From positions 1 through 56,711 of IMG/VR virus record IMGVR_UViG_3300024259_000040: DNA of 56,711 nt; one strand, written 5' to 3'. Positions within the stretch are counted from its first letter, which is position 1. Every line of letters starts with the position of its first letter. The notes under the pieces are model-generated. The model was not told where the DNA came from and did not search any database. It saw only the letters and a list, made by a program, of their open reading frames with translations. Positions 1 through 35,500 of the stretch are shown here, in pieces. Both the position numbers and the translations under genes were made by a program. Source of the DNA: a virus (Duplodnaviria; Caudoviricetes).

Positions 1-636
1 ATTGCAGCGTCGGGGCGCCGCACAAGCGCGAGCGAATATGGTTCGTGGCCGACACCCGATGCACAGTTGATGAACGACGGAGCCGATCCCGAGAAACATC
101 GAGCTCGACTGGAGCGCCTGAAGGAGAAGCACAACAACGGCAATGGTGCGGGGCTTCCGCTGGCCCAGGCCGCGCACCTATCAACTTGGCCGACGCCGAC
201 GCAACCAAGTGGGGGCCAGACGGTTCCAGAGGGAACGACGGCAACGGGGAAGCGACCGGACGGGAAGAAAGCGCAAGTGACGCTGAAAGATGTGGCGAGC
301 CTGGCGGGATGGCGGACGCCATCCCTGGAGATGGAGACGGGCGGCAGTTATTGCGACCCGGTGAAGGTTCAGGCGCGAATAGCGGCGGGACATCAGGTAT
401 ATCTGAAGGATCAAGCCATGCTGGTCCAGTCAACGGCTTCTGGGCCGACGCCGAATGGCTCCCCTGCCGAGATAACAAATATCGGGCAGTTGAACCCGGC
501 CTTAAGCCGCTTTCTCCAAGCATACCCCGAAGCCTGGGACATAGCAAGTCCGAACTACGACGCCTGGCTCGCCGTGCAAGAAGCAATCGCGTCGGACGAC
601 TCAAGGGCTACGGGAACGCCATTGTGCCAGAAGTAG
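1..636 (+). CDS. Overprinted ORF inside the MTase gene, C-terminal part (putative beta subunit with motif IX)
   Basis: WPTP/WRTP repeats; GQLNPALSRFLQAYPEAW resembles C5-MTase motif IX (LTPRECARLQGFP). Confidence 0.72.
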   Translation: MAASGRRTSASEYGSWPTPDAQLMNDGADPEKHRARLERLKEKHNNGNGAGLPLAQAAHLSTWPTPTQPSGGQTVPEGTTATGKRPDGKKAQVTLKDVASLAGWRTPSLEMETGGSYCDPVKVQARIAAGHQVYLKDQAMLVQSTASGPTPNGSPAEITNIGQLNPALSRFLQAYPEAWDIASPNYDAWLAVQEAIASDDSRATGTPLCQK

Positions 637-674
637 CGGCGGAGTTTATCCGCGCTTACGAGGAGGTCGCATGA
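1..674 (+). CDS. C5-cytosine DNA methyltransferase, C-terminal part (frame of ORF 45-674)
   Basis: In frame with 56216 after circularisation; ends RLKGYGNAIVPEVAAEFI (motif X). Confidence 0.88.
   Translation, partial: CSVGAPHKRERIWFVADTRCTVDERRSRSRETSSSTGAPEGEAQQRQWCGASAGPGRAPINLADADATKWGPDGSRGNDGNGEATGREESASDAERCGEPGGMADAIPGDGDGRQLLRPGEGSGANSGGTSGISEGSSHAGPVNGFWADAEWLPCRDNKYRAVEPGLKPLSPSIPRSLGHSKSELRRLARRARSNRVGRLKGYGNAIVPEVAAEFIRAYEEVA
2..51. repeat. Terminal overlap, left copy (identical to 56662-56711); indicates a circular or circularly permuted contig
   Basis: Exact 50-nt match TTGCAGCGTC...GTTCGTGGCCG at both ends; two reading frames continue across the junction. Confidence 0.95.
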
Positions 675-916
675 TCGAGCGCCGCCACTCCGTCGCCAAC
701 CTGCGGTTCCGTTCTATCGGCTGGTGCCAGCGTATCGACTACGCCGTCGGCCCCTGCCAGCAGTGCGGCCAGGTCGGACGGCTCGGCGGCAAGCTCTATC
801 CGCTACGTCGCCAGCTCGTCTGCAGCGGCTGTTACAACGTCGCCGAGACGACGATGGCCGCCCAGGTCGAGAAGATGCCGCCGGCCGATTGGGGCGAGAA
901 AGGAGGGCGACGGTGA
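671..916 (+). CDS. Small Zn-finger-like hypothetical protein
   Basis: GGAGG SD, ATGA coupling, CQQC...CSGC. Confidence 0.65.
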   Translation: MIERRHSVANLRFRSIGWCQRIDYAVGPCQQCGQVGRLGGKLYPLRRQLVCSGCYNVAETTMAAQVEKMPPADWGEKGGRR

Positions 917-1707
917 GGTTCACGCCGATCTGCGAAGAGGCTGTCGAGGCGATGGTTGAACAGATCCCCGGGCCAGACGAGATGCGGCTGAAAGCCTGGT
1001 CAGCAGTCCATCGAATACTGCACCGCTGCCAGCGCGAGGAGGGGTATTTCAAGGGCGTCAAATTGGCGCGCGGCGAGTTCCCTTTTGGCTTGGAAGAACT
1101 TGGGAAAAGTTGCTACCTCTCAATCCAAGAAATACGGACAATTCTAAAGCATCTTGAAAAAGCCCGATTTCTAACAAGCAAACGAACAAACAAAGGCAGT
1201 ATCGGAACTGTAATAGAATTTGATACTTACGTGATCGACCTTAACGGAGCTAACAAGCAAGCTAACAAGCAGCTAACAAGCAGCCAACAAGCAGCTAACA
1301 ACACACTAAAGGGGGAAAGGGGGAAAGGGGAAAGAAAAGATACTAGTAGTGACCTGAGTGAGGACGAGAGAAAACCGGGTGACGATTACGAGATCGACAT
1401 GGTGGAGTATTGGGATATGATCGCCCCTACCTTCCCGATACCGTGGAAGCAGTTCGACCTGTGGCGCAAGAATTCCGGCGAAGCTATCGCCGTCACTGCC
1501 GCCCTGCATTGTGCCACGATCGGCAAGGAACCCGACGACCCTGTCACCTACCTGCCCTCTCTTTTCCGCGCCGCCGCCGCAGGTGAGCTGTCCACACAAC
1601 GGAACCACCACCCCGCCCTACCCGCCGGCTCCCCCCACAAGGAAAGCACCGAAGAACGCCTCGCACGCCGTCGTCGCGAGAGAGAGGAGAGAGATCGTGC
1701 AGCTTAA
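913..1707 (+). CDS. Phage replication initiator (replisome organiser, winged HTH)
   Basis: GTG start after AGGAGG; GEFPFGLEELGKSCYLSIQEIRTILKHLEK...TNKGSIGTV HTH pattern; internal iterons. Confidence 0.75.
   Translation: MRFTPICEEAVEAMVEQIPGPDEMRLKAWSAVHRILHRCQREEGYFKGVKLARGEFPFGLEELGKSCYLSIQEIRTILKHLEKARFLTSKRTNKGSIGTVIEFDTYVIDLNGANKQANKQLTSSQQAANNTLKGERGKGERKDTSSDLSEDERKPGDDYEIDMVEYWDMIAPTFPIPWKQFDLWRKNSGEAIAVTAALHCATIGKEPDDPVTYLPSLFRAAAAGELSTQRNHHPALPAGSPHKESTEERLARRRREREERDRAA
1248..1340. repeat. Putative replication origin: five 11-bp iterons AGC(T/C)AACAA(GC/CA) followed by a purine-rich tract
   Basis: Copies at 1248, 1260, 1271, 1282, 1293, then GGGGGAAAGGGGGAAAGGGGAAAGAAAAGA; located inside the initiator gene as in lambdoid phages. 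Confidence 0.75.
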
Positions 1708-2281
1708 TCAAGACCGCCAAGCCTTTGAGCGCATCGAGGCGCTCCTGCTGGCCCACTATCGGACCATGGTGCCGGATTCCCTGCTGGACGAGATCGAGCG
1801 CATCATGGGGCGCCTCGACAGCCAGATGGTCGAGGAGGCCGTCGCGCGCCACGTCGAGGACACCACCCTGGACGGACGCAATATGCCCGTCGGCAAGTTC
1901 CCTCCGTCCATCGCCGACCTGACCCGCCACTACGAGCAGCAGATGATGGAGCGGCGCCGGGAGGAGCAGCAGCGAAAGAATATCGAGCGCCAAAAAGAGC
2001 CGAGAAACCCTTCCGTCGCGAAGAGGGTGTTGGTCAAGGTCAATTGGGATGAGCTGGTCAGAGGCTACGCCGAGAAGCGGCGAGCGATCACCGCAGCCCT
2101 CCGCCAGCAATTACACCTCACCTGGAAGGATTTCTTTGAGACGATGGTCCTGGCACATACGATCAAGGCATGGATGGATAGCGGTGCCAAGATGACACCG
2201 GCCGAGGCCGTCGAAGTCGCCCGCAGATACATCGAGCAGCATACCAACCCCAAGGAGGAGCAACATGCCATCGCCCAATAA
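1697..2281 (+). CDS. Putative replicative helicase loader/inhibitor (SPP1 G39P-like)
   Basis: Follows the initiator; AVARHV...KFPPSIADL motif. Confidence 0.55.
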   Translation: MQLNQDRQAFERIEALLLAHYRTMVPDSLLDEIERIMGRLDSQMVEEAVARHVEDTTLDGRNMPVGKFPPSIADLTRHYEQQMMERRREEQQRKNIERQKEPRNPSVAKRVLVKVNWDELVRGYAEKRRAITAALRQQLHLTWKDFFETMVLAHTIKAWMDSGAKMTPAEAVEVARRYIEQHTNPKEEQHAIAQ

Positions 2282-2462
2282 ATTCCCCAAGGAGCGCGTC
2301 GCCAGGGCGGCCCGCATCTACTCGTCTAACGACGCCGCTGGCAGGGCGCTCGGCATTGCCCCGGGCAGTTTTGGGAGGCTTTGCAGGAAGTACGAAATCG
2401 ACACGCCCCTGCAGCAGAAGGAGCGACGGCGCGCCGAATTCCGCGAAGGACTGCCCGAATGA
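2265..2462 (+). CDS. Small HTH DNA-binding protein
   Basis: AGGAGG SD; NDAAGRALGIAPGSFGRLCRKY is a Fis-like HTH. Confidence 0.65.
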   Translation: MPSPNKFPKERVARAARIYSSNDAAGRALGIAPGSFGRLCRKYEIDTPLQQKERRRAEFREGLPE

Positions 2463-2938
2463 GCGCCCTTATCGCTATCACCGCCGTCCTCATCCTGCAG
2501 GCCGCCGCCGTCCTGTCGCACGCCTGGGGACAGCGGGATCGGTCGGAGCAGGCACTGATCGCCGTCCTGGTCGGTATGTGGCTGCCGTGCTTTGCGCTGG
2601 TATGGCTCGGCACCTTCCCAGCCTATTGCATCATCCACCCGCCGGCCTGGGTCTTTGTGTGGATCTGGCTGGGCGAGGATCACACCCATTGGGCGCACCG
2701 GCTCTGGATTAAAAACCTGTCCACGTCCAATCTGTTCCACTTGGCCTCGGCCCTCTCGAACTACCCGGCGTCGATCGCCCTGCTCTACTACGCCGGTATC
2801 TGGTGGCCCTGGTGGATCGTCGTGGCGCTGGTCTGCAAGGTCGAATGGAAGCTCCTCAAGCACGTCACTGGGGTCGCTCACTGGCCCCTCCTCGAAACGC
2901 AGGTTATCCGCTTTTTGCGAGAAAGGTTCGCCCGATGA
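2459..2938 (+). CDS. Polytopic membrane protein
   Basis: Several hydrophobic segments; ATGA coupling at both ends. Confidence 0.65.
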   Translation: MSALIAITAVLILQAAAVLSHAWGQRDRSEQALIAVLVGMWLPCFALVWLGTFPAYCIIHPPAWVFVWIWLGEDHTHWAHRLWIKNLSTSNLFHLASALSNYPASIALLYYAGIWWPWWIVVALVCKVEWKLLKHVTGVAHWPLLETQVIRFLRERFAR

Positions 2939-3600
2939 AACCGCAAGTAACGCGCGCCGCCGACGGCGGCAAGGTGCTGTCGTTCGCCGGCAGTAAGCTG
3001 GCGCTGTCGATCGTCGGCCCGCCCGATAACCCTATCCCACAACCCTATATGCGGCTCATGCTACTGGCCGTGGCCATGCACCCCGCCCCCAAGCGTATCC
3101 TCCTCCTGGGCCTGGGTGGAGGCGTGCAAGCGCGCTGGCTCCTACAGCACACAACCGCCGACATAGAGGCCGTCGAGATGTCCGAGGGAGTCTACGAGCT
3201 GGCGCGGACCGAGATGGGCCTGGAGCGTCACGGGCGCCTGGCCGTGGTCATCGACGACGCGCTCAACTGGCTGGATGAGCGCCCCGACCATAATGCCGAC
3301 CTGGTCCTGGTCGATCTGTTCGATGAACGTGGCATGGCGTCGGTCGTCCGCTCGATGTATTTCTGGCAGTCGCTGGAAAAGCATCTGGCCCCGGACGCGA
3401 TCGTCGTAGCCAATCTGATGGGCGACACCCACCTCGTCACCAAGACGATGGCCGAGACGCTGGGCGCACCCGTCACCAACGTCGCCTCCCCCGACGGCAA
3501 CGTCGTCGCCTTCAGCGGCGAGAATCGTGCCGATATAGGAGCATGGAGGGAGCGCCGCGACGAGATAGAGGCACGAACGGGCCTCTCTTTCGCCGTGTAG
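2935..3600 (+). CDS. Spermidine-synthase-like SAM-dependent methyltransferase-fold protein
   Basis: PKRILLLGLGGG (motif I), VEMSEGVYELAR, VVIDDAL, DLVLVDLFD, IVVANL. Confidence 0.8.
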   Translation: MKPQVTRAADGGKVLSFAGSKLALSIVGPPDNPIPQPYMRLMLLAVAMHPAPKRILLLGLGGGVQARWLLQHTTADIEAVEMSEGVYELARTEMGLERHGRLAVVIDDALNWLDERPDHNADLVLVDLFDERGMASVVRSMYFWQSLEKHLAPDAIVVANLMGDTHLVTKTMAETLGAPVTNVASPDGNVVAFSGENRADIGAWRERRDEIEARTGLSFAV

Positions 3601-3612
3601 ATCGAATAATTC

Positions 3613-3641
3613 TTGACAGGGTATTATCAATCTGCGATCAT
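3613..3641 (+). promoter_or_regulatory. Putative sigma70 promoter
   Basis: TTGACA-N17-GATCAT with extended TG, in an intergenic AT-richer patch. Confidence 0.4.
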
Positions 3642-3662
3642 GGAGAAGGGCATGGGTCTTGC

Positions 3663-3920
3663 ATGGATCAGTCAGGGGTTTTACGGGTGATAGCCACAAT
3701 CAAAGAGGCGCACACACGACCTTCTGCAGGTGAAATAACGATCCACTTTTGCCCCGAGGGGGAATGTAAATACTCCCTCACCCTCACACGCGGACATCCC
3801 AAGTCGGTAACGTTCGCCACCGAGGACGAGCTGTTGAAGTTTATCGCCGCGTTCAATGCTCCCCTACCTGCCCCCGGGCAGGAGCAGGAGATACACCACC
3901 GCACGGCGGCCAGTAACTGA
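3663..3920 (+). CDS. Hypothetical protein
   Basis: ORF downstream of the putative promoter. Confidence 0.45.
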   Translation: MDQSGVLRVIATIKEAHTRPSAGEITIHFCPEGECKYSLTLTRGHPKSVTFATEDELLKFIAAFNAPLPAPGQEQEIHHRTAASN

Positions 3921-3990
3921 CGACGATTTAAACCGGAGCGCGTTCCGGCGCGCACGGTGACATAACCGAGTAGATCATAAGACGGGTTCA

Positions 3991-4040
3991 GGCTCGTTCG
4001 ATCTGGAAGACAAATCCAGACCGGGCGGGCCTTTTTTTTT
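3991..4040 (+). terminator. Intrinsic terminator with a long interrupted hairpin
   Basis: GGCTCGTTCG-a-TCTGGA/agacaaa/TCCAGA-c-CGGGCGGGCC followed by T9. Confidence 0.7.
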
Positions 4041-4145
4041 GTTTTGCATCCCCTCGGGGATGTGGCCCTTCGCGGGAGAGGGGGGAGCAAGGGGCCGCCC
4101 CAACAACGCGACCTCTTCCGCACACCTTACTCAGGAGGACAGCGC

Positions 4146-4712
4146 GTGGCCTCTCGCTCACTCAACGACCTGACCCCCGACACAAAGATCAAAGCGCTGG
4201 AGTTCCTGCGTCTCACCTCCGACGCGGATCTGCAGGTGCTGATCTACTGCACCCACCGCGATGCCTGGGAGCAGGCGCGCCTCTACCGCCAGAGCAGGAC
4301 ACGCAAAGAGATCGACCAGAAACGCGACTTCCTCATCAAGAACGGCTATCGCGTCCTGGCCGACATCCTCGAAGCGGTCGGCCCACAGGCTGGCGCGCTG
4401 CCCCACGTCACCTGGGCCGGTCCCGGCGAGTCGTTCCATCAGTTCAGGCAAGCGTTCGACGCCGTGCCAGTGATCGACGGCAAGTGTATCTGGATAGACG
4501 ACCATCCCTCATGGCTCACGTTCGCCGCTGGCGCTAACCAGGCGGGCCTGGACTGGTCCGGCTACTGGCCCAAGGCCAAGCGCGAATACTTTCATTGCCA
4601 GATCCCCACCGCCGCACGCGAAAATCCCCTCTTCCACTACAACCCCGTCGAGATAGGCAAGGCGCTGGCCGCCGACATCGACCGCCTCAACGACGACAAG
4701 GAGGCCGCATGA
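4146..4712 (+). CDS. Endolysin, M15 family (L-Ala-D-Glu-type) peptidase
   Basis: AGGAGG + GTG; SRSLNDL..., THRD..EQARLY, GESFHQFRQAFD (SxHxxxxAxD), WSGYW...EYFHCQ. Confidence 0.85.
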   Translation: MASRSLNDLTPDTKIKALEFLRLTSDADLQVLIYCTHRDAWEQARLYRQSRTRKEIDQKRDFLIKNGYRVLADILEAVGPQAGALPHVTWAGPGESFHQFRQAFDAVPVIDGKCIWIDDHPSWLTFAAGANQAGLDWSGYWPKAKREYFHCQIPTAARENPLFHYNPVEIGKALAADIDRLNDDKEAA

Positions 4713-6917: not shown

Positions 6918-7499
6918 ATGAGCAAACTAACGCCGAGACAAGCGCGCTTCTGCGACGAGTATCTGATCGACCTCAACGCGACGCAGGCGGCGATACGCGC
7001 CGGCTACTCGCCGAGGACGGCGAATCAACAGGGCGCGCGTCTGTTGGCGAATGTTAAGATCCAGGCCGCGCTCGGCGAACGCATGGAGAAGCGCGCCGAA
7101 CGGACGGGCATCGACGCCGATAGCGTCGTGCGGCGCCTGGCTGAGATTGCGTTCGGCGACCTGGGCGAATTCCTCGACATCCTACCCGACGGGACGGCGC
7201 GCGTAGACCTGGCCAAGGCGAAGGGCAAGACGCGCCTCCTGAAGAAATACGATTGTAAGCAGATCTTGGCCGGCGATCCGAACGACGCGCTGCCGATCGG
7301 CGACATGAAGATCGAACTGCACGACGGCCTGCGCGCCCTCGATATGCTCATGCGTCACCTGGGCGCCTACGCGCCGGACAAGGTCGCACAGACCGACAGC
7401 GCCGGCAACGACGTGGAGCAGAGCGACCAGGCTATCCTCTCCCTACTCATTGGACGACTACAGCGGCGTAAGGCGGCGCGTGACAATGACGGCGATTGA
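6918..7499 (+). CDS. terS: Terminase small subunit
   Basis: LTPRQARFCDEYLIDLNATQAAIRAGYS...ALDMLMRHLG. Confidence 0.95.
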   Translation: MSKLTPRQARFCDEYLIDLNATQAAIRAGYSPRTANQQGARLLANVKIQAALGERMEKRAERTGIDADSVVRRLAEIAFGDLGEFLDILPDGTARVDLAKAKGKTRLLKKYDCKQILAGDPNDALPIGDMKIELHDGLRALDMLMRHLGAYAPDKVAQTDSAGNDVEQSDQAILSLLIGRLQRRKAARDNDGD

Positions 7500-9855
7500 C
7501 GAGCTGGTAGACGCCCTGGACGACCCCGCCGACCTGCTCCTGCTGGCCGACGACCCCGTGGCCGTCGATCTGCTCAAGCGTCGCTACTATGCCTGGTCGA
7601 AGTGGGCCAGGGCCGATCAGCTACCACCCCCGGGCGACTGGACGATCTGGCTCATCCTCGCAGGGCGTGGATGGGGTAAGACGCGCACCGGCGCCGAGTG
7701 GGTCCGTCGCCGCGTCGAGCAGGAAGGGGCGCGCCATGTCGCCCTGATCGGCGAGACGGCGGCCGACGTGCGCGACGTGATGGTCGAAGGGGAGTCCGGT
7801 ATCCTGGCTATCTCCCCGCCGTGGAATATGCCCGACTATGAGCCGTCGAAGCGGCGCATCACCTGGCCCAACGGCGCGACGGCGACGACGTTCAGCGGCG
7901 ATGCCCCCGATCAGTTGAGAGGACCGCAATCGGATACCGCCTGGTGCGATGAGACATGTTTTGTTGCCGGGACGCAGATCGAGACGCACAGGGGGCTTAT
8001 TCCCATTGAGAAGATAGAGCCAGGAGTGCAGGTATGGACTCGCCGGGGTTGGCGATCTGTCAAGGCAGCCGGCCTGACGCGACGCAATGCGCCAGTATAT
8101 GAATTGCGAACCAGTGACGGCCGCCGTCTTGTGGGAACCGGAGAGCATCCGGTTTGGGTAGAAGGTGAAGGTTTTTTGCCCTTGCGTCGGTTGCACTATG
8201 GGAATACCCTTGAGGTATGGGACAATCAAACATTAAACAGAGCATCAAGTGGGGCGGCCGTCGATGGTGGCTCAATGGCGGCTACTACTGTAATCGCCGA
8301 GGGCAACTTTTGCATCGAGCGATTTACGCTGCAGCGCATGGCCCTATCCCCGAGGGCGTCGAGATTCACCACAAAGACGGCAATAAGACTAATAACGATC
8401 TGTCCAACCTCGAAGCCCTCTCCGGCACTGACCATAGGCGGAGACACTGCACTGGCTTTAAGCGTTGGGGTTTTGAGGATCGGAGTCAAGCTAAATTGCG
8501 GCAATGGGCGAATAGGGAGCCATATTTGGCCATCTGCGCTCAATGTGGCAAGGAGTTTTCCACTACGGGGACCAGGTCGAAGTATTGCTCGGGAAATTGC
8601 CGGTCGGCTCATTATAGGGAGACGGCCAGATTCTCGAACTCTGCAGTTTGCGAGTTCTGTGGAAAGGACTTCAAGACCTCCAAATACCAAGACCATCGCT
8701 TCTGTTCACGATCCTGCGCAACATCATCTGCGAATAACAAACGCGCCTATCAGCGCCGAAGAGGCAGTAAGGTCTGTCCGATATGCGGCGCGACCTTCCG
8801 AAAAGAAGATCCGCGCACGCAAACCTGCAGTCGAAAATGCGGCTACATCCTCGCCTCACGTAGTAAGCGTACGTCTTCTTAGTACCCCCCGAGCAGTTTA
8901 CAATCTCGAAGTTGAGGACCAGCCTGAGTATTACGCCAATGGCATACTAGTCCACAATTGTAAGTGGAAGTATGCATATGATGCCTGGTCAAATATGGAG
9001 ATGGGCCTGCGTCTCGGCGCACATCCCCGCTGCGTGGCCACCACCACCCCCCGCCCTATACCTCTTATACGTGAGCTAGTCGCCGACCCTGACTGCGTCG
9101 TCACCAAGGGCAACACCTACGACAACGAGCAAAACCTGGCGCAGCCGTTCATTCAGCGCGTGCTGCGTCGCTATGAGGGGACGCGCCTGGGTCGCCAGGA
9201 GCTGCACGCTGAGATACTGGACGATGTGGTTGGCGCGCTGTGGAGCCGTCAGCTCCTCGACAAGACGCGCCGCCGTGCGGCCGGCTACCTGCTGCGCGTC
9301 GCCGTTGGCGTCGATCCGCAAGGGACGAAGTCGCTCGATGAGGACGGCGGCGACAAGCATGAGACGGGTATCGTCGTCGCCGGCAAGGGGGTAGATGAGC
9401 AGGGCTACGTCCTGGGCGACTACTCGGGTAACTACTCGCCGAACGAGTGGGCCAGCGCCGCCATCAAGGCGTATCACGACCACGAAGCTAACTGTATCGT
9501 CGCCGAGGTCAACTATGGCGGTGATATGGTCGCTCATACGATCCGCACCGTCGATCCCACCGTCAATGTCGTCGTCGTGCGCGCCAGCCGGGGCGCTGGC
9601 AAAGCGCGCCGAGCCGAGCCGATCGTCTCCCTCTACGAGCAGGGCCGCGTCCACCATGTCGGCCTGCTGCCCGAGCTAGAGGATGAGATGTGTACGTGGA
9701 CCGAGGACGGCGGCCAGCCGTCGCCCAACCGCCTCGACGGCGCTGTGTGGGCGCTGTGGAAGCTGTTCATCGACGCCGACGAGGACTATCCGCACTACGA
9801 CCCCGGTCGGCACACCTACGCCGTGCCGGCGCCACAGACGAGGAGAGTCGCATGA
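7486..9855 (+). CDS. terL: Terminase large subunit, intein-containing
   Basis: Walker A AGRGWGKT, LRGPQ, Walker B WCDE, TTTP, GVDP, DETG-like HETG, PNRLDGAVW. Confidence 0.95.
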   Translation: MTAIDELVDALDDPADLLLLADDPVAVDLLKRRYYAWSKWARADQLPPPGDWTIWLILAGRGWGKTRTGAEWVRRRVEQEGARHVALIGETAADVRDVMVEGESGILAISPPWNMPDYEPSKRRITWPNGATATTFSGDAPDQLRGPQSDTAWCDETCFVAGTQIETHRGLIPIEKIEPGVQVWTRRGWRSVKAAGLTRRNAPVYELRTSDGRRLVGTGEHPVWVEGEGFLPLRRLHYGNTLEVWDNQTLNRASSGAAVDGGSMAATTVIAEGNFCIERFTLQRMALSPRASRFTTKTAIRLITICPTSKPSPALTIGGDTALALSVGVLRIGVKLNCGNGRIGSHIWPSALNVARSFPLRGPGRSIAREIAGRLIIGRRPDSRTLQFASSVERTSRPPNTKTIASVHDPAQHHLRITNAPISAEEAVRSVRYAARPSEKKIRARKPAVENAATSSPHVVSVRLLSTPRAVYNLEVEDQPEYYANGILVHNCKWKYAYDAWSNMEMGLRLGAHPRCVATTTPRPIPLIRELVADPDCVVTKGNTYDNEQNLAQPFIQRVLRRYEGTRLGRQELHAEILDDVVGALWSRQLLDKTRRRAAGYLLRVAVGVDPQGTKSLDEDGGDKHETGIVVAGKGVDEQGYVLGDYSGNYSPNEWASAAIKAYHDHEANCIVAEVNYGGDMVAHTIRTVDPTVNVVVVRASRGAGKARRAEPIVSLYEQGRVHHVGLLPELEDEMCTWTEDGGQPSPNRLDGAVWALWKLFIDADEDYPHYDPGRHTYAVPAPQTRRVA
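7957..8958 (+). mobile_element. Intein (334 aa) inserted just after the TerL Walker B motif
   Basis: Starts CFVAGTQI, block B GTGEHPVW, block F VYNLEVED, ends ILVHN/C; removal gives WCDET-CKWKY. Confidence 0.93.
8217..8882 (+). CDS. HNH homing endonuclease with C-terminal Zn-finger repeats, encoded in an alternative frame inside the intein
   Basis: LHRAIYAAAHGPIPEGVEIHHKDGNKTNNDLSNLEAL...H; three CxxC...(Y/F/T)CSxxC repeats. Confidence 0.88.
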   Translation: MGQSNIKQSIKWGGRRWWLNGGYYCNRRGQLLHRAIYAAAHGPIPEGVEIHHKDGNKTNNDLSNLEALSGTDHRRRHCTGFKRWGFEDRSQAKLRQWANREPYLAICAQCGKEFSTTGTRSKYCSGNCRSAHYRETARFSNSAVCEFCGKDFKTSKYQDHRFCSRSCATSSANNKRAYQRRRGSKVCPICGATFRKEDPRTQTCSRKCGYILASRSKRTSS

Positions 9856-25096: not shown

Positions 25097-26718
25097 TGCC
25101 TCCGCGCCGTAAAGCCCTCCCTGTCCCGCCGCATGGCGTCCCTTTCCTGGGCGAGCATGACCGCGCTGCGCTGACCTCTAATGTGTATGTGCGCGGCTTC
25201 ATGCGTCGCATGCGCAACTACCACCTGGGTATCGACGGGGCGACCAAGCGATATGGCACGCAGCCCTACCAGGCTATCGGCGAGTCTTACATGAAGGGGA
25301 CCGGCACGACCCCTATACAGTCGCTGGCTATGTATGATTTCTCTGGCACGCGCCATATTGTCGGCGTCTGCGGCGGCGATCTGTATGCCTATAACGGCAC
25401 GACGCTCGTCAAAAGCGCGATCACCGGCGCGCTGACGATCGCCTCGGGGGCCGACAGCCACCTACGCTGGGCGCCTTATGACAACAGCACCAACGCCCTC
25501 CTCATAGGGTCGGACGGCACAAACCCGCTGTTCAAGTGGACGGGGACCGGCAATGCGACCGTCCTGGGGGGGACACCGCCGACCAAGGCGCGCGGCATCG
25601 CTGCCTTCCAGGGACGGCTGTTCGTCATCAACACTGATGCGGGCGCCACAGCGACCGAATATTCTAACGACGCGACAGTCGATACGTGGGGCGCCGGGCA
25701 GATCTTCCATTGCAGTCGTAGCAGCGAGGGGATGGCGCTGGTCAATCATGGCGAGAACTACCTGATAGCGTTCCATCGTAAGTCGTGGCATAAGATCTCC
25801 TTCTTTTATGTCGATACCGGGTTGTCGGATAGTTACTTCCGGCAAGACCCTGGCGGCGAGACGGGCCTTATCTCACCCGATGCGGCGATCCACTACCAGG
25901 GCGTGACCTATTTTGCGTCCTCCGATGGCATCTACGCTATCACCGACCCCGAGAAGAAAGAGAAGAAGATCTCCGGCGCTATCGACGCTTTTTGGGAGCA
26001 GTTGGTCGATAAGCGGATAGACAATATCACGGTCTGCGAGCGCGGTCGTGGGTTCAATGAGATCGTCTTTTTCGTCTCGACGGTCGATACCGACGAAAAC
26101 GACGCGGCGATCATCTACAACCCCGAGGTGGCTAAGTATTATCGCGGGAAAGATGAGACGGCCGGCTGGACCATATTTGAGAGCGCCAGTGGCTATCTCA
26201 AGTATAACTGTGGCCTCACCTGGACCGACTCGTCGGATCGTGAGATCCTACTGCTGGGCGGGTATGACGGTATGATCCATGAGGGATGGGGCAACGACCA
26301 GTATGCGACCGGCTATCTGGATGGCGGCACGACGGGCGTGGCTGTCACGACTGAGCTATGGACCGGCTACGTCGCCCCAGCGGGACCGGCCTGGGTGACG
26401 GGCCTCCGCGCCCTACAGGCCGATCTGATCGTCAACGGCGCGCGCGACTTCTCCTTTGTCATCTATGGCAATGACCAGACACCGGCCTACGTAGACAGCC
26501 AGGCGTCCGCCGGCGGCAGCGGCGATGAGCTGGATGTAGGCTTCATATTCGATCAGTCCTACTTCACTGATGAGGGCGTCGCTGGTATAGAGCTGGACGA
26601 GATCAACGGGTCGGCGCGCTACTTCCAAGCACAGGTATCCGAGAATTCACAATTAGTCCCACACTCCGTCTCCGGTTTGCGCTACATGCACGTGCCAGAG
26701 CGAAAGGCTATCGCGTAA
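25096..26718 (+). CDS. Tail nozzle/stabilisation protein (P22 gp10/T7 gp12-like beta-propeller)
   Basis: KRYGT N-terminal motif, FQGRLFV, YFASSDGIY; beta-rich; position. Confidence 0.7.
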   Translation: MPPRRKALPVPPHGVPFLGEHDRAALTSNVYVRGFMRRMRNYHLGIDGATKRYGTQPYQAIGESYMKGTGTTPIQSLAMYDFSGTRHIVGVCGGDLYAYNGTTLVKSAITGALTIASGADSHLRWAPYDNSTNALLIGSDGTNPLFKWTGTGNATVLGGTPPTKARGIAAFQGRLFVINTDAGATATEYSNDATVDTWGAGQIFHCSRSSEGMALVNHGENYLIAFHRKSWHKISFFYVDTGLSDSYFRQDPGGETGLISPDAAIHYQGVTYFASSDGIYAITDPEKKEKKISGAIDAFWEQLVDKRIDNITVCERGRGFNEIVFFVSTVDTDENDAAIIYNPEVAKYYRGKDETAGWTIFESASGYLKYNCGLTWTDSSDREILLLGGYDGMIHEGWGNDQYATGYLDGGTTGVAVTTELWTGYVAPAGPAWVTGLRALQADLIVNGARDFSFVIYGNDQTPAYVDSQASAGGSGDELDVGFIFDQSYFTDEGVAGIELDEINGSARYFQAQVSENSQLVPHSVSGLRYMHVPERKAIA

Positions 26719-29700
26719 TGACGCAAGTGACCTCCCCTATCCCGCCCAAGAAGAAGAAACGCCCCGAGGATATGTGGGCCGACATGCAAAAACCGTCCTC
26801 GGGCATCTACGGCGAGGCGATCGCTGCGGCGAGCAAGCGCTTGAAGAATCCGACGGATGGGTTCACGACCGACCAGGCGGGCCAGGTGGAGCGGTTCTAC
26901 ACCCAGCAGTATGAGGAGGGTGCCGGCAAGCGCATGAAGGGCGTGCAGGCGCAGCTCCGCTCGATCGGTATGTATGACTCGGGCCGTCACTCGGAGGCGC
27001 TCATCAATAATGAGAAGCGCCTGTCGGCCGACATCGCCCAAAACGTCACGGTCCCGCTCATCATGGACGACCGCGACCGTCGCATGGCGCTCCAGCAACA
27101 GACGATCGAGCAAGCGCAGTCGCTGGGGCGGGGCGAGCATGATATGACGATGCAGCGGGGCGACCTGGGGCTGCGTGAGCGGGGTATGTCGTTGGAGGAG
27201 AAAGAGCAGGGGCAGGCGGCGGGTATCCGCGACAGGATGCAAGCCCTGGAGGAGAAGATAAAGTCGGGTAATCTGAGCATCGCCGAGCGTCAACAGGCTG
27301 TGGACGAGCTGGAGCAGTTGCAGGCATCGAGCGTGCGTGAGCGGGGTATGTCATTGGAGGAGAAAGAGCAGGGGTCCGTCGCGACCGCTCGGGAGGCACA
27401 GACCAAGCTGGCGCAGGATCAACTGGCTCTGGAGAAGCGCCTGGAGGAAGCGCGGCTCTCTGGCGATCTGGATGGCCATCGGACGATTGAGAAGCAGTTG
27501 GCGGATCTGGATCATATAATCCGAAGAGAGCAAGTGGAACAGGATCAGCAACGGATCGACTTAGAGAAGCGCCTGGAGGAAGCGCGCCTGTCGGGCGACA
27601 TCGGCGAACAGCGGACCATTCAGGGGCAACTGGCCGACCTACAGGGTGAGATCGAGCGCGGCCAGTTGGACGAGAATCAACGTCAGTTCAACACCTCACA
27701 GACGGGTATCCTGCAGTCTGGTCCGATCACCCTCGAATCAATCATCGACCCTGCGCGCCTGCGTGACTTCCAGACGCGCGAGCAGATGCGTCGCCTGGGG
27801 GAGGGCGAGCTGGAAGCGTTCCAAGCTGAGATCAAACAGCGTTTCTCTGAGCTGGCCGGTCGGCCGCCAACCGACGAGGAGTTCCAAGCGCTCTGGTATA
27901 ACCAGCCGGTGCAGGTGCAAGGCCAACAAACCCTCTCCGCGCAGGATCTGGCCCAACAACGGCAGTTACAACAACAGCAGATCGACATACAACAGCAACT
28001 GGCCGACCTGTCCGATAAGATCCAGACCGCCCAGCAGTCGGGCAAGCTCGGGGAGGACGAGCTGCCCACCCTGGAAGCACAGCGCGTCCAACTGGCAAAG
28101 GATCAGCAGGATATTGACGAGCGTCTGTCCTATTTCGGGCAGGCCGAGCAGTCGCGCCAGTTCAACGTCACACAGACGGGTCGCATCGGCACAGAGGGTA
28201 CAGTCAATGCAGAGACGCTCAAAATCGACCTGTCCGGCCTGGTTAATAGAGAGAAGGGTGGGTTTGATAGGGATGTTTTTGATCGCGTGGCGCCACGCGC
28301 AAAGGCAGCCCTGGAAGCGGCGGGCATACAGGCAACACCCGCTCTGATCGGCGCTATCCTATCGGGCCGCGATGTGGATAGTAATGGCCAGTTGACGTTG
28401 GCGGCGACCGAGCAGGCGACACAGGCGGGGATGCAGGCGGGTGGTCTTAACCTGGAGCAGCAGCGTGTCGAATTGGAAGCGGAGATACAACGTGACGGGG
28501 TAGCCCTGGAGAAGGCGCGCGTCATGGGCGTCGATGTGGATGAGGTCAAGACCCTGGAGGCGAAGCTGGCCGAGGGACAGCAGAAGCTGGGGGAGACCGA
28601 GCTGGCGTTGCGTGCCGAGGAGTTCTTCGCCGCGCAGACGGGTCAGGTGGGGCGCCAAGGCAGTGTGACCGCCGACCAGTTGGGCGTAGTGATACGGGGG
28701 GATGAGACGCCCGAGGAGCGGGCGACATTGACCGACCGCCTCAACCGAGCGATGACGGCGGCGGGCCTCGACCCCTCTCCGGCCAACCTGAAAAGCCTCA
28801 TGGCTGGTGAGAGCATCGACACGACAGGGACACTGACGCTGGGCGCGCGCGACCAGGCCGGGTCGCAGGCACTGGAGCAGCAGCGCATCGAGCTAGAGGA
28901 GCAACTGCGGACGGCTGAATTATCCGGCGATATTAACGGGGCCAGCACGATCAAGCAACAGATGGCCACTCTGGACGCAGAGAGGCAGCGCGCCCAGCTA
29001 TCCTTCGATGAGGCGGGGCTGACGGGGAGGTATGCGCGCCCTGTGACGGCCGCCGACTTCGGTATCGACGTGAGCGAATACCTCAACGCCGATGGCACGT
29101 TGAAGGACATGGACAAGTTCATAGCGGCGGGCGACCGCTTTGAGGCCAACTTCGAGGCTATGTATGGGCGCCCACTGACAGAGCCAGAGGCGCACGCATT
29201 AGCGATGGGCAAGGAGGTCGTCATCTCGGAGGATACACAGGCGGGCCTCTCCGAGACACAGCGGCGCACTCTGGAAGCGGAGATACAGCGTGACGGGATG
29301 GCCCTGGAGAAGGCGCGCGTCATGGGCGTCGATGAGGGGGAGATCAAGACCCTGGAGGCCAAGATAGCCGACAAGGAGGCCGAGCTGGACGCCGCCCGCC
29401 TCAAGCTGGAGGAGCGCGGCGTGGCCGTCGAGGAGGAGAAGGTCGATCTGGCTGAGAAGGAACTGAACATCAACGAAGCACTACAAGGGCGCTCCCTCGA
29501 CATCGAAGAGGCGCGCGTATCGCTACAGGAGGCGGCCGAGACGAACAGGCAGGCGCTCGAACGGTTACAGGCGCTGGGTCAGGAGGTCGATCCTGAGACG
29601 GGCGAGACGATAGAGACACTGCAGGCCCGTCAGTTTGCTCTCAATAAACAGCTTGAGGTGGCCGACAGGACGGGTAAGTTCGCCACCACAGCCAGCGCCG

Positions 29701-31544
29701 CCGATTTCGGTATCGACGTTAATACCTACCTCAATGCCGATGGCACGTTGAAGGACTTCGACAAGTCTTTAGAGATGGCCGATCTCCTTGAAAACAACTT
29801 CAAAGAGATTTACGGGCGCGAGCTGTTACCGATTGAGGCGCACGATCTGGCGATGGGTGGAGACATTGGTGTCGTGTTGGAGACGATGGAAGGAAAGAGC
29901 CTCGATAATGAGGAGGCGCGGGCGACGTGGGTCAAGTCTATGGAGGAGGCCGATCGGACGGGTAAGATCATTGATCCTATGACGGGGAACCCTCAACTGA
30001 CCCTATCGGCGCAGGCCGAGAAGAACGACAAGGAGCTGCGCGAGGCGGGGCTGGACAACGAGGCCGATTCGATCGCCAATAGTTTTAAGTCGTTCAACGC
30101 CGAGCTTAGGCAGCGGGCGAACGAGTCCATTCGGGAACACAACCTCAACGACAAACAGGCGACCGCCGCTATTGCTAATATCTATGCCGAGATTGAGAAC
30201 CGGAAGAAGGCGTTGGAGCAGTCGGCCGTCGAATTTATCTCACAGAACGAGCAGGCGTGGGCGCAGATCATGGGCAGCTCTTTCATGGGTGGCTCTATCA
30301 GCGCCGAGACGTTGGGCGTTAACCTCTCCTCGACCATGTCGGACGCCGAGAAGCGGTCTACCATCGAGCGGGCGTTCAAGACGGCGACGGGGCGCGCACC
30401 GACGAAGACGGAGTCGTACAACCTGTCCAAAGGGTACGATATTGATGTCGAGTCGTCCCCGACGCAAGCGGCGAAACAATTCGCCGCGACCATGGCGTCG
30501 CAGGACATGGACCGGGCGGTCGATGTGAGTCGCGTATCGAATGAATACACCATCGACCACGGGAAGTTGGAGCAGTATATCAAGGAATCGGATAGGAACT
30601 ACACCACCACGACGCAACAGGTGGCCGACAAGTATAGCCTGGACCGTATGCAGTTCGGCATGGCAAAGATGGAGCTGGACGCCAGGCTGACGGGTAAGGT
30701 CAATATCTCGGGTAGTTACTCGGCCAAAGACCTGGGGATAGAGGAGCCGCCTTCTCAGTGGGACCGGCTGACTACCGACCAAAAAAAGGCTTTTACGGAG
30801 TCCACGCGCGATGTCTTCGAGACGCTGCAGGGGCGCGCACTGAGCGATGATGAGATCATTAACCTCGCAGGCGGCGGTAAGGTGGCCGTGCAGACGCTCG
30901 ACACGCAGGCGTCGAAGGAATGGGCCACGGCCGCGCGCGAGTCGGCGTCGCGCTTTGGGCTGGACGAGGATAAGTTCCTCGAAGCGGCTGGACAGTTCGA
31001 CGCCGAATATGCGCTTTCTGATCGCAATACATGGGCGCAACTGACCGGCGCAGCGTATGGCGTGGAGGGGGGCGCGACGGAGGGCAAGCGGACCTCGACG
31101 GTCGGATGGAAACAGTACAGCAATGCCAAGAAGGCGTTCGATGAGAGCGAGATAGAGCGGGACGAGGTGTGGCGTGGTATGATGACGCAGGATCAAATCC
31201 CGGTGAATGCCGATTTGCTGATTAGGGAATTGAATTTTGATAACTTTGAGATAAGGGATGCTTCAAAGGTTAGCGATCAAGAGATCCAAGACGCTTTTTA
31301 TGATTCGCGCGGATATGAGTTAAAGTCTTATGAGGTTCAGATGATTCGCGATGGCGCTGGTCAAGGAAAGAAAGCAAAAATCAACATTGGCACGGGCGTC
31401 GCTTTGGGCGACCCTGACGCCGTCGCGGCGATCGCCAATTTCGTCAATGGCCATAGCGTCGCCCTGGCACCGGCTCAGTCGTCCACTTGGGAGAATATCG
31501 GCGGGTTAGTAGGCACGATCGCCACGCTGGCAATAGCCGCATAG
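26718..31544 (+). CDS. Large internal virion/ejection protein with coiled-coil and internal repeats (1608 aa)
   Basis: Q/E-rich helices, RQFN motifs, duplicated segments, C-terminal WENIGGLVGTIATLAIAA. Confidence 0.65.
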   Translation: MTQVTSPIPPKKKKRPEDMWADMQKPSSGIYGEAIAAASKRLKNPTDGFTTDQAGQVERFYTQQYEEGAGKRMKGVQAQLRSIGMYDSGRHSEALINNEKRLSADIAQNVTVPLIMDDRDRRMALQQQTIEQAQSLGRGEHDMTMQRGDLGLRERGMSLEEKEQGQAAGIRDRMQALEEKIKSGNLSIAERQQAVDELEQLQASSVRERGMSLEEKEQGSVATAREAQTKLAQDQLALEKRLEEARLSGDLDGHRTIEKQLADLDHIIRREQVEQDQQRIDLEKRLEEARLSGDIGEQRTIQGQLADLQGEIERGQLDENQRQFNTSQTGILQSGPITLESIIDPARLRDFQTREQMRRLGEGELEAFQAEIKQRFSELAGRPPTDEEFQALWYNQPVQVQGQQTLSAQDLAQQRQLQQQQIDIQQQLADLSDKIQTAQQSGKLGEDELPTLEAQRVQLAKDQQDIDERLSYFGQAEQSRQFNVTQTGRIGTEGTVNAETLKIDLSGLVNREKGGFDRDVFDRVAPRAKAALEAAGIQATPALIGAILSGRDVDSNGQLTLAATEQATQAGMQAGGLNLEQQRVELEAEIQRDGVALEKARVMGVDVDEVKTLEAKLAEGQQKLGETELALRAEEFFAAQTGQVGRQGSVTADQLGVVIRGDETPEERATLTDRLNRAMTAAGLDPSPANLKSLMAGESIDTTGTLTLGARDQAGSQALEQQRIELEEQLRTAELSGDINGASTIKQQMATLDAERQRAQLSFDEAGLTGRYARPVTAADFGIDVSEYLNADGTLKDMDKFIAAGDRFEANFEAMYGRPLTEPEAHALAMGKEVVISEDTQAGLSETQRRTLEAEIQRDGMALEKARVMGVDEGEIKTLEAKIADKEAELDAARLKLEERGVAVEEEKVDLAEKELNINEALQGRSLDIEEARVSLQEAAETNRQALERLQALGQEVDPETGETIETLQARQFALNKQLEVADRTGKFATTASAADFGIDVNTYLNADGTLKDFDKSLEMADLLENNFKEIYGRELLPIEAHDLAMGGDIGVVLETMEGKSLDNEEARATWVKSMEEADRTGKIIDPMTGNPQLTLSAQAEKNDKELREAGLDNEADSIANSFKSFNAELRQRANESIREHNLNDKQATAAIANIYAEIENRKKALEQSAVEFISQNEQAWAQIMGSSFMGGSISAETLGVNLSSTMSDAEKRSTIERAFKTATGRAPTKTESYNLSKGYDIDVESSPTQAAKQFAATMASQDMDRAVDVSRVSNEYTIDHGKLEQYIKESDRNYTTTTQQVADKYSLDRMQFGMAKMELDARLTGKVNISGSYSAKDLGIEEPPSQWDRLTTDQKKAFTESTRDVFETLQGRALSDDEIINLAGGGKVAVQTLDTQASKEWATAARESASRFGLDEDKFLEAAGQFDAEYALSDRNTWAQLTGAAYGVEGGATEGKRTSTVGWKQYSNAKKAFDESEIERDEVWRGMMTQDQIPVNADLLIRELNFDNFEIRDASKVSDQEIQDAFYDSRGYELKSYEVQMIRDGAGQGKKAKINIGTGVALGDPDAVAAIANFVNGHSVALAPAQSSTWENIGGLVGTIATLAIAA

Positions 31545-32589: not shown

Positions 32590-35500
32590 ATGGCCAGTCG
32601 ATTCGCCGGTTTGACGCTCACTTCGCCAAGGGAAGAAGAAGAGGAGCGGCCGTCGCGTAGTCGTTTCGCCGGCCTGACGCTCGCTCCCGCGCCGTCTATC
32701 CCCGAACCGCCTACCCCCGCGCTCCCACCGTCCGACCTACGCCCCGAGCAGGAGGCTTTCCTATCCGGCGATATGACGATGTCACCGCCGTCGATGCCGC
32801 GTGTAGTGCAGGCGGGTGGCGGCACGTCGGTCGTGCCGACCGCACCGGCGCAGCCCGGGCCGTCCTATACCGATCAGATGCGCACCGAGGGACGACCGCT
32901 CACGATGGGCGGCTCCTCTTATGGCGAGAAGCCTAACGCGCTGACGCGCGGCTTCGTCTCTGGCTTTGCCCAACAGAACCCCAATGCATTGGGTGCAGTC
33001 GCCGAGGCGTTCGGTCATCTGGTGCAGTCACCGACGGGCGCGGTCGTCCTGGGGACACTGGCGGGCGGCTCGCCGACGGGTGGGATCGGCCAGGGTATCC
33101 AGATGAGCGCCGGCGTGGGTGAGCGCCTGAAGAAGGCGTCGAAGAAGCTGCGCAGTTATCGGGCGGGGCAGACCTACCAGACGACCGGCCTCTCTCTCAA
33201 AGACATCGAAGACCTCGACACGGCACTGACCTATGCTGGCGAGACGGTCGGCCAGGGGGTCGCCTCAACACTCGCCCCGCTGGCGGGTGGCGCTGTCGGC
33301 GCGCTGGTGGCCGGCCCGGGGGGCGCGATCGCGGGCGCAGCAGGTCCGTCCTATGTCCTCAACATGGGCGACCTCTACGATAGCCTCATTGACGAGAAGA
33401 TCCCCGCCGCACGCGCGGCGGAGATCGCCGCTTATGGCGCTATCCCCCTGGCGGCGCTCGATGCGGCTGGCTCGCTGGGTATCCTCAAGACGATCACCGG
33501 CAACGTCAAGCGCACGCTCATTAAAAACATGGCCAAGCGTATCGCCGCGAAAGCGGCGAAGGGAGCGGCCAGTGAGGGTGGCACGGAGGCGACACAGCAG
33601 ATCGTCCAAGAGGTGATCCGCGACTTTGCATCCGATAGAGACATCCCCCTCGATGAGCAGGCCATGAACGTCCTCGATGCGGCTATCGGCGGCGTCCTGA
33701 CGGGCGGCGCGATGGCGGGGGCGGGTGGCGTGCGACCGGACAAGGCGACCGATCACACGCGGGCCGTCGAGCAGGTCAACCAACGCCTGCAGGAGAAGAT
33801 CACGCCGACGATACCGTTCAGAGAAGCCAACGAGCAGGACGGCAACCTCGGCACGGCGCCCGATGTGCTGGGCTACGAGGAGCGGGCGTTCCCCCAGGAG
33901 ATGCGCGAGCGGTTCCAGCAGGACGAAGCGAAGGCGCGCGAGAAAGCGCAAGGAGACACGGCGCGCGATGCGCTCAACCAGGCCGCCGCTAATATCGGCT
34001 TGACGGAGGAGCAGATCACAGGGCTGGACCGCGCCAGTCTCGCCGAGGCTGTCCACGTCCACGAACAATGGCAGGCACGCGATATTTCCAACAACGAGGC
34101 GACCGAGCAGATGCAGGCGCTGTTTGCTGCCGCCGGCGTTACTCAGGAAGAGGAGGCGGCGCCGATCCAGCGCGTTCAATCGGTCTTCCAAGAGGGCCAG
34201 TTCGCGGCTCCGGCAGTGCAGGCCGAACCTGAACCGGCGCCGCCAGCGGTCGAAGAGACGACCGACGAGCAGGCGACGGAGATCGTCCCACCGAAGGAGC
34301 GACCGACGCTCGACGTGCGCGGTAAGAGACTGGAGCTGCGCTATCCCAAAGGAAACGAGGCGGCGACTCAGGGTAGTATAGACGACGTTCTACTGGCCAA
34401 CATGGGCTTCCGCTATGACAAGGCGACAAAGACGTGGTTTGGCGCGCTCGATGAGGAACGGCAGCAATTCGCTGAACGGCTGGCGGCTGGCGAGGTGATG
34501 GAATTCGGCGGTCCAGAGCTTTTAAGGTCGATGGAACAAAAGGACGCAGCGCGCGCGTCGGTCAGGAAGAATTTCCTCGACAGTCACGGCCAGGTGACGT
34601 TTCAGGCGCCAGTACGGCGGGGAATCGGCGACCGCAAAGGCTTCGCTATCTTCTCACCGTCTACATCGGAGCCAGGTAAATGGCAGGCGACCCTCTTTGA
34701 TGAGGAAGGGCCAGTATCGCACGCCGTTGAAGCCGATTACGACGCACTGCTGAAGGAATACCAGGACGACTACGATATCGACCTGGGCGGCGCGAAGGTC
34801 GCCGAGGCGCCGCAGCAGCGCGCGGAAGAGACGCCAGCAGAGCCGGATTTCGAGGGTATGACCTCCTTACCCGAGCCGCGCACCGGCGGGCCTGCGGAGA
34901 AGCTATATCAGGGCATTGAGGAAGGAACAGACGAAGAGAAGGCGGGCGCCGTCAGAGGGGTCCATGAGCAGGTTATTCAGGATCTCACCATGCGCGGTCG
35001 AATTCTCGCCCATGTCACCGCTCGCCTAAAAGATCCTGACCTTAAAGAGAAAGAGCGGGAAAACCTCGAAGCAGAGAAGAATACCCTCGAACGCGACGTT
35101 GCAGACGAATACGGCGAATATGGCAACGACTTCGGCCTGGATGCCGAGGAGAAGTTGCGCGCTCATGTAGACCAGAGCGTCAACCAGGCGCCGACGAAGG
35201 AGCGAGTGGTCGCCGATATGTCGCTGGAGGAATTCAAGGCCACACGGAAGCCGCCGAATTTCAGCAGCGGTACGGGCGAGGCGACAACCTACGCCGAGAA
35301 AATCGCCAAGTATCGAGCGATGGGCGACGAGAAGGTCCAGGGGGCGGCCACCGGCAATATGCTGGCCGACAAGGTAGAGGCGCAGGCCAAGAAGCTGTTT
35401 GAGGTAGAGCAAAACGCCGATTCTGCGCCGACCGTTACGCAGGATGCGGAACCGAGTACGCCGATTGCGGCAGAGGTCGCGGCGACGGAGGTGGACGAGG

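Follow-up and report, generated by a model that had tools for sequence, protein, structure and literature searches.

In canonical HNH inteins, the HNH-class homing endonuclease is a domain of the intein polypeptide (Dalgaard et al. 1997, as cited in the preprint of Gosselin et al. 2025). Recent reports, all from the Gogarten lab, describe nucleases that sit in a different reading frame from their host gene. As described in the main text of their preprint, Gosselin et al. found inteins with an endonuclease VII-like (IPR004211) nuclease in another frame, a layout seen there as rare and possibly transitional. In the ShiLan domain of a mycobacteriophage DNA methylase, the third frame conceals an HNH (Arsenault et al., Genes 2025, PMC11855218), and in a cyanobacterial dnaX intein a LAGLIDADG endonuclease is encoded out of frame (Phillips, DeSimone and Gogarten, bioRxiv 10.64898/2026.09.14.751524). 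Here we describe a related case in the terminase gene terL of a marine phage, IMG/VR virus record IMGVR_UViG_3300024259_000040, which has an estimated completeness of 71% and whose entire 56,711 bp are referred to below as the window. A preliminary description of this DNA had read the locus as a terminase intein with a separate HNH gene in a shifted frame. Every test we ran supported that reading, and the frame relation recurs in many unrelated phages. Judging from sequence comparison and structure models, we put at about 80% the probability that the locus is a mobile class-1 terL intein and that its homing endonuclease has a gene of its own, which overprints the central linker in the −1 frame.

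As in the inteins of Gosselin et al., the intein described here is contiguous, with terL among the host genes, and the nuclease lies between the splicing blocks in what they call 'reading frame 3' of the intein, the offset seen here. The in-frame middle lacks recognizable structure in both cases, and the origin proposed is likewise a free-standing endonuclease that invaded an intein. Their nuclease is endonuclease VII-like, whereas the one described here is an HNH_3 protein with three Zn ribbons. None of their actinophages was among the 29 phage records recovered by our tblastn search, and the layout described here is both widespread (32 nested contigs plus four cultured phages) and old (HNH identity ~30-40%). 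The dnaX intein also has overlapping frames, one giving a disordered intein middle and the other a confidently folded nuclease under purifying selection, and a secondary invasion of a mini-intein is again the proposed origin; it differs in having a LAGLIDADG enzyme in a cellular gene rather than an HNH in phage terL. In ShiLan (PMC11855218), an HNH with zinc fingers, which flank it there, occupies the third frame of a stop-free host gene, as here, and has no detectable ribosome binding site. Its host gene is a methylase and its host phages differ as well; that insert has no splicing domain and stays in the host protein, whereas complete splicing blocks flank the HNH in our locus. Since the overprint lies inside a complete intein, it should be removed from the host protein, unlike ShiLan. 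The 'fractured genes' of Dassa et al. (2009, PMC2677866) are split inteins whose two halves are separated by a free-standing endonuclease gene, the same parts in an arrangement matched by one relative of our element (L083), whereas the terL frame of the window is continuous and would encode a cis-splicing intein. The homing endonuclease I-HmuI of Bacillus phage SPO1 (PDB 1u3e), the top structural match of the predicted HNH protein but with a low template modeling score, has an HNH core, an N-terminal beta region and extended DNA-binding modules; it differs in that our HNH protein has three Zn ribbons in its C-terminal DNA-binding part, and I-HmuI resides in a group I intron, not an intein. The preliminary description had cautioned that novelty needed a literature check, and rightly so, as the papers of 2025-26 had already reported 'hidden' HNH insertions and inteins with out-of-frame endonucleases. 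This kind of layout is already in print; the nuclease family and host range found here are not yet, as judged from the text consulted in the Gosselin, Arsenault and Phillips papers, where neither an HNH_3/Zn-ribbon overprint in terL inteins nor the layout beyond actinophages and cyanobacteria is described.

The splicing blocks listed in the preliminary description (C1, TxxH, block F and HN/C) were all located, along with a HINT-like body in a structure model. The intein sits one residue past a Walker-B-like 'DE' of TerL ('WCDET/C...HN/CKW', with slashes at the splice junctions). Cys1 of block A is the TGT at 7957-7959 in '...WCDET/CFVAGT' and is invariant among 11 aligned inteins, as are the Thr and His of block B (T61-x-x-H64, 'GTGEHPV') and, in the C-terminal half, V319, A327, N328, L331 and N334. 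The sequence VYNLEVEDQPEYYANGILVHN stands at the C-terminal end of the intein, where block G, 'GILVHN', finishes at 8956-8958 and is followed by Cys+1 of 'CKWKY' ('GILVHN/C', 8941-8961). Against Pfam Hint_2 the intein scores 29.9 bits, above the cut-off of 28.4. We modeled the TerL-frame intein with AlphaFold2 on the 11-sequence alignment. Its predicted local distance difference test score (pLDDT) is 92-96 for residues 300-334, which together with residues 1-90 form an all-beta, HINT-like body. The linker between the halves, residues 92-296, has a pLDDT of ~30, reads as disordered and coincides with the overprinted stretch. Across the overlap (8215-8880) the TerL frame has zero stops and matches zero Pfam families at an expectation value (E) ≤0.01, which bears out two earlier claims, that the middle of the intein is featureless in the TerL frame and that both frames stay stop-free for 666 nt. 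The element is a class-1 intein whose two ends are predicted to form a HINT splicing domain, with ~205 middle residues modeled as a stop-free, unstructured tether.

The open reading frame (ORF) in the shifted frame is delimited by its own stops, a TGA at 8211-8213 upstream and a TAG at 8880 downstream, with the ATG one codon past the upstream stop. Its product matches HNH_3 (PF13392) with 57.4 bits, compared with a cut-off of 24.8 (E 1.1e-15), and the core of the match lies at 8307-8447. A 221-codon alternate-frame ORF with a 1e-15 Pfam match is not a chance occurrence. The earlier reading of 8217-8882 as a clear HNH nuclease with three Zn-finger repeats held up, as the repeats were located (Table 1) and their region gave weak matches to Pfam FCS and treble-clef zinc-finger families. 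The proposed search of both frames with profile models separated them, with HNH_3 in one frame and no family in the middle of the other. No Pfam match to Endonuclease_7 was obtained for the HNH ORF at E≤0.1. Among 13 HNH sequences, the catalytic His...Asn...His residues and the cysteines of the first ribbon are invariant or at least 90% conserved; H51, H52, N60 and N64, together with four Cys, show no variation, and H73 and H77 reach at least 90%. An AlphaFold2 model on this 13-sequence alignment has a mean pLDDT of 83.7, with values >90 across most of residues 10-170. In a Foldseek search its top PDB match was I-HmuI (1u3e; probability 0.98, E 8.6e-3, template modeling score (TM-score) 0.23-0.28). 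Taken together, the −1 frame encodes a predicted I-HmuI-like HNH_3 nuclease with three Zn ribbons.

Two compensating indels, from sequencing or assembly, could in principle split an ordinary in-frame HNH intein into the two frames that we observe. At least half of the sampled words of 7800-9100 were present in 8 of the 16 sequencing runs listed, and contigs from three other runs or studies span 7842-9100, 7906-9100 and 7800-8852 with zero gaps. Their only substitutions, at 7902 and 7905, both lie outside the intein. The compensating-indel explanation, which the preliminary description had named as what would overturn its reading, is excluded because the contigs of these three runs, independent metagenome assemblies that cross both frame boundaries, show no gaps. 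An artifact also fits poorly with an HNH frame delimited by its own TGA at 8211 and TAG at 8880, and with the identical frame offset in four cultured-phage genomes and 29 other contigs. As weaker evidence on the same side, a search at E≤1e-5 turned up no protein of at least 388 amino acids that has this HNH in frame. We consider the probability of an artifact to be negligible.

The layout is not confined to the window. A tblastn search with the HNH protein against 50,697 phage records returned 29 records, six of which (four phages) matched under an annotated terL. In all four of these cultured phages, Tetrasphaera phage TJE1, Acinetobacter phage Highwayman, Clostridium phage phiCDHM19 and Rhodobacteraceae phage LS06-2018-MD07, a contiguous terL ORF contains the HNH ORF at offset 2, within an intein. 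That intein sits at a different terL site, near the C-terminus, and terL alone is annotated over the HNH in the four records. A single-protein search of IMG/VR gave 62 loci; 12 of the 15 best were nested and the other three had stops in both alternative frames, while the 47 weaker matches covered the HNH core only and none was nested. A profile scan then gave 69 viral and 10 genome loci. Among the 53 loci with matches of at least 300 nt, 32 were nested and 21 were not. The host frame is HNH+1 in 29 of the nested contigs (12 being contigs of the first scan) and HNH+2 in the remaining three (L104-L106, one lineage). Within the 10 loci of the genome-contig scan, one on a contig of a Sutterella metagenome-assembled genome (L138) was nested and the others were short HNH-core matches. 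Nested members have a locus G+C content (GC) of 0.30-0.63. The HNH start lies 85-92 codons past Cys1 in all 17 loci measured, and from the HNH stop to the end of the intein there are 0-25 codons.

Two further arrangements came up in these searches. In L104 (3384-3920; also in L105 and L106) the HNH_3 ORF with the host at HNH+2 belongs to a phage with a GC of 0.35 and has an AAGGAG Shine-Dalgarno (SD) sequence and a TTG start. In the Pseudomonas phage records KT734862.1/NC_028980.1 (PAE1; 2328-2888) and PP813866.1 (6822-7445), the tblastn matches overlap an HNH or hypothetical gene together with a portal or structural-protein gene, which could be a similar nested or adjacent arrangement in the portal gene.

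If both frames are retained, the question is which of the two proteins is under selection. The closest relative of our element is an IMG/VR contig (L006) that shares its terL family and insertion site. Over the overlap, the window and L006 share 120 of 221 residues (54%) in the HNH frame and 64 of 210 (30%) in the TerL frame. For comparison, 45/85 residues are identical in the N-terminal and 15/26 in the C-terminal splicing part, 61/124 in the N-extein and 114/282 in the C-extein. The window's own clade offered only this one relative, at 54% identity, so dN/dS was computed for a more closely spaced trio of relatives (L016, L019 and L020). Differences within the trio cluster at HNH codon position 3 (e.g. 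51/95 and 46/101), and Nei-Gojobori dN/dS, the ratio of nonsynonymous to synonymous rates, is 0.16-0.29 in the HNH frame vs 0.54-0.86 in the host frame. The asymmetry between the frames is clear despite the bias that overlap introduces, and in the relatives it is the HNH protein that is selected, with the terL frame no more than kept open. The dual constraint proposed in the preliminary description, and its suggested comparison of dN/dS in each frame among homologs, thus came out as expected, with the HNH frame conserved and under purifying selection in relatives and the host frame open in all 15 loci tested.

An alternative is that the HNH ORF is a silent relic: a free-standing gene would have invaded a mini-intein and, unexpressed in this phage, would have had too little time to decay. 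This member has no well-spaced SD or promoter-like site, and the open terL frame of the window by itself fits chance (P up to 0.28), both of which a relic would explain. A relic would not be expected to retain an intact 221-codon ORF with all catalytic and Zn ligands, to show 54% identity to L006 in the HNH frame vs 30% in the terL frame, or to belong to a family with a dN/dS of 0.16-0.29 in relatives. The layout is also kept across lineages whose HNH proteins are only ~30-40% identical, and because of this persistence we regard it as long-lived and selected. Silence of the HNH in this phage is therefore unlikely, and a selected nuclease gene is the reading that we carry forward.

To ask how improbable an open host frame is, we permuted synonymous codons within each of 15 HNH ORFs and scored the +1 frame of the HNH, which is the host frame. 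The permuted host frame had a mean of 0.5-5 stops per locus and was open in 1e-4 to 0.52 of permutations; the actual host frame is open in 15/15 loci. In the other frame (+2), 6-35 stops were expected. Four free-standing homologs have 8-13 stops in the same frame that is open in the nested loci. For the window, P(open) is 0.28 under the within-ORF permutation, 0.07 with extein codon usage, 0.035 with the usage of the intein splicing parts and 0.017 with uniform usage. The within-ORF null is too conservative because stop avoidance itself shapes codon composition, so we added the other nulls and the family-wide counts. Across the family, the sequence evidence that host-frame openness is selected is overwhelming. 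We infer that the 29:3 bias toward one frame arises because host-frame stops need a T at HNH codon position 2, which is scarce in a protein rich in K, R, E, N and C. Stop-codon arithmetic would in this way account for the frame bias without any frameshifting mechanism.

A strict rule that the nuclease is always in frame 3 was considered and rejected, since the other offset occurs in L104-L106 (HNH_3) and in a second intein of L012 (PF01844 HNH). This second intein (L012:761-1765) is at the Walker-B region of the same terL and has an overprinted ORF at 903-1721 (host +1); its nuclease is a PF01844-type HNH (E 1.5e-4) with N-terminal Zn ribbons. In the two other-frame cases, L104 and the second intein of L012, none of 20000 permutations was open.

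How the HNH is translated in this member was flagged as unclear in the preliminary description, which pointed to a GAGGT directly against ATG 8217 and a TGA at 8211. We confirmed both, and no well-spaced SD is present in this member. For comparison, 18 of the 49 listed ORFs of the window have a well-spaced SD, including most of the long + strand ORFs, which we take as real genes. Of 31 loci examined, 29 have a start codon at the corresponding position, usually overlapping a host Trp or Cys codon (xxA/TGG). The base after the ATG presumably cannot be A, since TGA would then arise in the host frame. Among the 29 nested relatives with an assignable start, 12 have an SD-like motif 4-12 nt upstream; neither the window nor L006 has one, and both have an in-frame stop 0-1 codons before the ATG. 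RNA around the HNH start has no special structure (z = +1.2), a value that does no more than agree with a start region that is open. Within the ORF, the minus strand has three terminator-like hairpins, which were judged to be chance, as shuffled sequences gave 1.2 ± 1.2. A 157-nt seawater metatranscriptome contig matches 8086-8242 exactly and spans the HNH start codon; we set it aside as evidence of expression since it is short and strandless and may be DNA carry-over.

We favor SD-independent internal initiation at ATG 8217, with reinitiation or frameshifting as a minor possibility. Under the latter, the HNH would be made by ribosomes already on terL, through either a −1 frameshift that yields an N-extein/N-intein/HNH fusion or termination and reinitiation. 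The −1 position of the HNH in 29 of 32 nested relatives and the stop 0-1 codons ahead of an ATG without SD in the window and L006 would fit such a mechanism. The frame bias is explained by stop-codon arithmetic alone, however, and three contigs use the +1 relation. The upstream in-frame stop rules out a fusion that begins before 8214, and reading the sequence by eye we saw no X_XXY_YYZ slippery heptamer between the TGA at 8211 and the conserved HNH N-terminus. A start codon conserved in place in 29/31 loci, with an SD in 12/29, likewise argues against both variants, and we consider them very unlikely.

Some of our results count against a mobile intein with a separately translated HNH gene. The match of the intein to Pfam Intein_splicing, 35.4 bits, is slightly below the gathering score of 35.8, and the structural match to I-HmuI has the low TM-score and the E value given above. 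This member lacks a usable SD, with the GAGGT abutting the ATG, although other genes of the window have well-spaced SDs. Sigma-70-like promoters in 7400-9200 numbered 0 where 0.7 were expected, a null result that is uninformative because late promoters of phages may be of another kind. The contig from the RNA library, at 8086-8242, fits a terL mRNA, an HNH mRNA or DNA carry-over alike. Overlapping frames bias dN/dS, and our figures come from relatives rather than from close kin of this member. Finally, the open terL frame of the window, taken alone, is only mildly improbable (P 0.017-0.28 by null). These points are included in the estimate given at the outset.

Several observations bear on mobility. 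GC across the intein (window 7925-9050) is 0.49-0.56 vs 0.60-0.74 in the terL flanks. This dip, which matches the lower-GC relative L006, suggests on sequence grounds a fairly recent acquisition from a lower-GC phage. An intein-less homolog is the 420-amino-acid TerL of Microcystis phage Mae-JY09, which reads 'AAWADE-L-AAW' across the site and is 67% identical to the window over an N-extein segment and 51% over the C-extein. The HNH family is also found free-standing and in a split intein. In the latter (L083:1907-4225), an ORF for the N-terminal part of TerL and the intein ends at 3388, an HNH_3 ORF occupies 3348-4079, and an ORF at 4016-4225 follows with the C-terminal intein part ('...NGGLIIHN/CDAIRYY') and the last ~19 TerL residues. 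Three other contigs, L012, L013 and L014 (host ORFs 230-3685, 1235-3694 and 170-3694), have near-identical terLs that differ only in extra inteins: none in L013, the Walker-B HNH intein in L012, and in L014 an intein at the P-loop that has a 'LAGLIDTDG' motif in frame. One phage population seems to be caught here in the course of gaining and losing inteins.

In HK97-like phages, HNH proteins encoded beside the terminase genes work with the terminase in packaging. The HNH described here could, by analogy, be a domesticated packaging accessory nuclease that acts with the terminase rather than a selfish one. HNH genes of that kind are mentioned in the abstract of PMC3592412. The location of the HNH inside terL and several free-standing homologs near terminase or portal genes would fit such a role. 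Domestication sits poorly with close terL homologs that lack the entire element, with an element GC ~0.1 under its flanks, and with the HNH_3/I-HmuI-like family, a class of intron-encoded and free-standing homing nucleases. Moreover, an HNH that occurs at two or more terL sites, as a free-standing gene and within a split intein is distributed as a homing element would be. We judge domestication to be highly improbable and interpret the HNH as a homing endonuclease.

The features of the locus are listed in Table 1. The terL frame is unbroken over 7450-9855; in the 801-amino-acid reading from the first TTG, Pfam places Terminase_6N at residues 68-176 and Terminase_6C at residues 620-748. Elsewhere in the window are two very large + strand ORFs, 26718-31544 (1608 amino acids) and 32590-42420 (3276 amino acids), both with SD-led ATG starts.

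Table 1. Features of the terL locus in the window (positions in nucleotides from the first base).
Feature	Position	Strand	Details
Class-1 intein	7957..8958	+	1002 nt = 334 codons; Cys1, TxxH, terminal HN, Cys+1
HNH homing-endonuclease ORF	8217..8882	+	221 amino acids + TAG; offset 2 (= −1) relative to TerL
Three Zn-ribbon repeats (CxxC...CxxxC) of the HNH protein	8535-8600, 8649-8717, 8775-8840	+	sequence motif; strand-strand-helix units in the AlphaFold2 model
N-terminal splicing half (blocks A, B)	7957..8226	+	intein residues 1-90; AlphaFold2 pLDDT 86-96
TerL-frame linker	8230..8844	+	intein residues 92-296; stop-free, no fold or family
C-terminal splicing half (blocks F, G)	8854..8958	+	VYNLEVEDQPEYYANGILVHN; first ~9 codons shared with the HNH ORF tail
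terL precursor ORF (N-extein, intein, C-extein)	7486..9855	+	first ATG 7486; frame open from TTG 7450
TerL C-extein	8959..9855	+	begins with the Cys+1 nucleophile
Terminase small-subunit gene	6918..7499	+	Pfam Terminase_2, E 4e-36; directly upstream, overlapping the terL start

We propose the following model for the element. With intact splicing blocks in an essential gene, the TerL precursor would splice itself at C1, N334 and C+1 to give a working terminase. The HNH would be translated alone from ATG 8217, either by internal initiation on the terL message or from a transcript of its own. In a co-infection it would cut intein-less terL alleles near the 'DE-x/' site, and repair would then copy the intein together with the HNH into the cut allele. 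The arrangement may have originated when a free-standing HNH gene landed in a mini-intein, and the usual frame relation would be favored since the +1 frame of a protein rich in K, R, E and N needs few stop-avoiding choices.

We also speculate, tentatively and with more doubt than confidence, on the family as a whole. The overprint might be an old and stable design of one large phage terL intein family, in which a single HNH_3/Zn-ribbon cassette moves among three states, standing free as a gene, separating the halves of a split intein or riding out of frame in a contiguous one. The contiguous form might be kept since it makes the dose and timing of the nuclease independent of the abundant late TerL, and members without an SD might use non-canonical initiation on ribosome-covered terL mRNA, through either structure-poor, SD-independent entry or reinitiation. 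If true, a selfish gene would here have a new means of setting its expression low while residing in an essential gene.

The findings have consequences for annotation. The nuclease family is invisible in annotated phage genomes because gene callers cannot report a gene nested on the same strand in a longer ORF. Intein surveys that read the middle as 'a degenerate endonuclease domain' would misclassify such elements as mini-inteins or decayed inteins. The family may also supply tools, as its HNH nucleases are compact and predicted to target terL, and its inteins would accommodate a disordered insert of 200 residues. It offers a natural case of dual coding in which the constraint is asymmetric: the protein matters in one frame, and in the other only an open tether. 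For intein biology, out-of-frame homing endonucleases are neither rare nor limited to actinophages, and they persist over deep divergence. This is relevant to the 'splicing first, endonuclease later' view of how inteins arose. One nuclease family also links contiguous inteins, split inteins and free-standing endonuclease genes.

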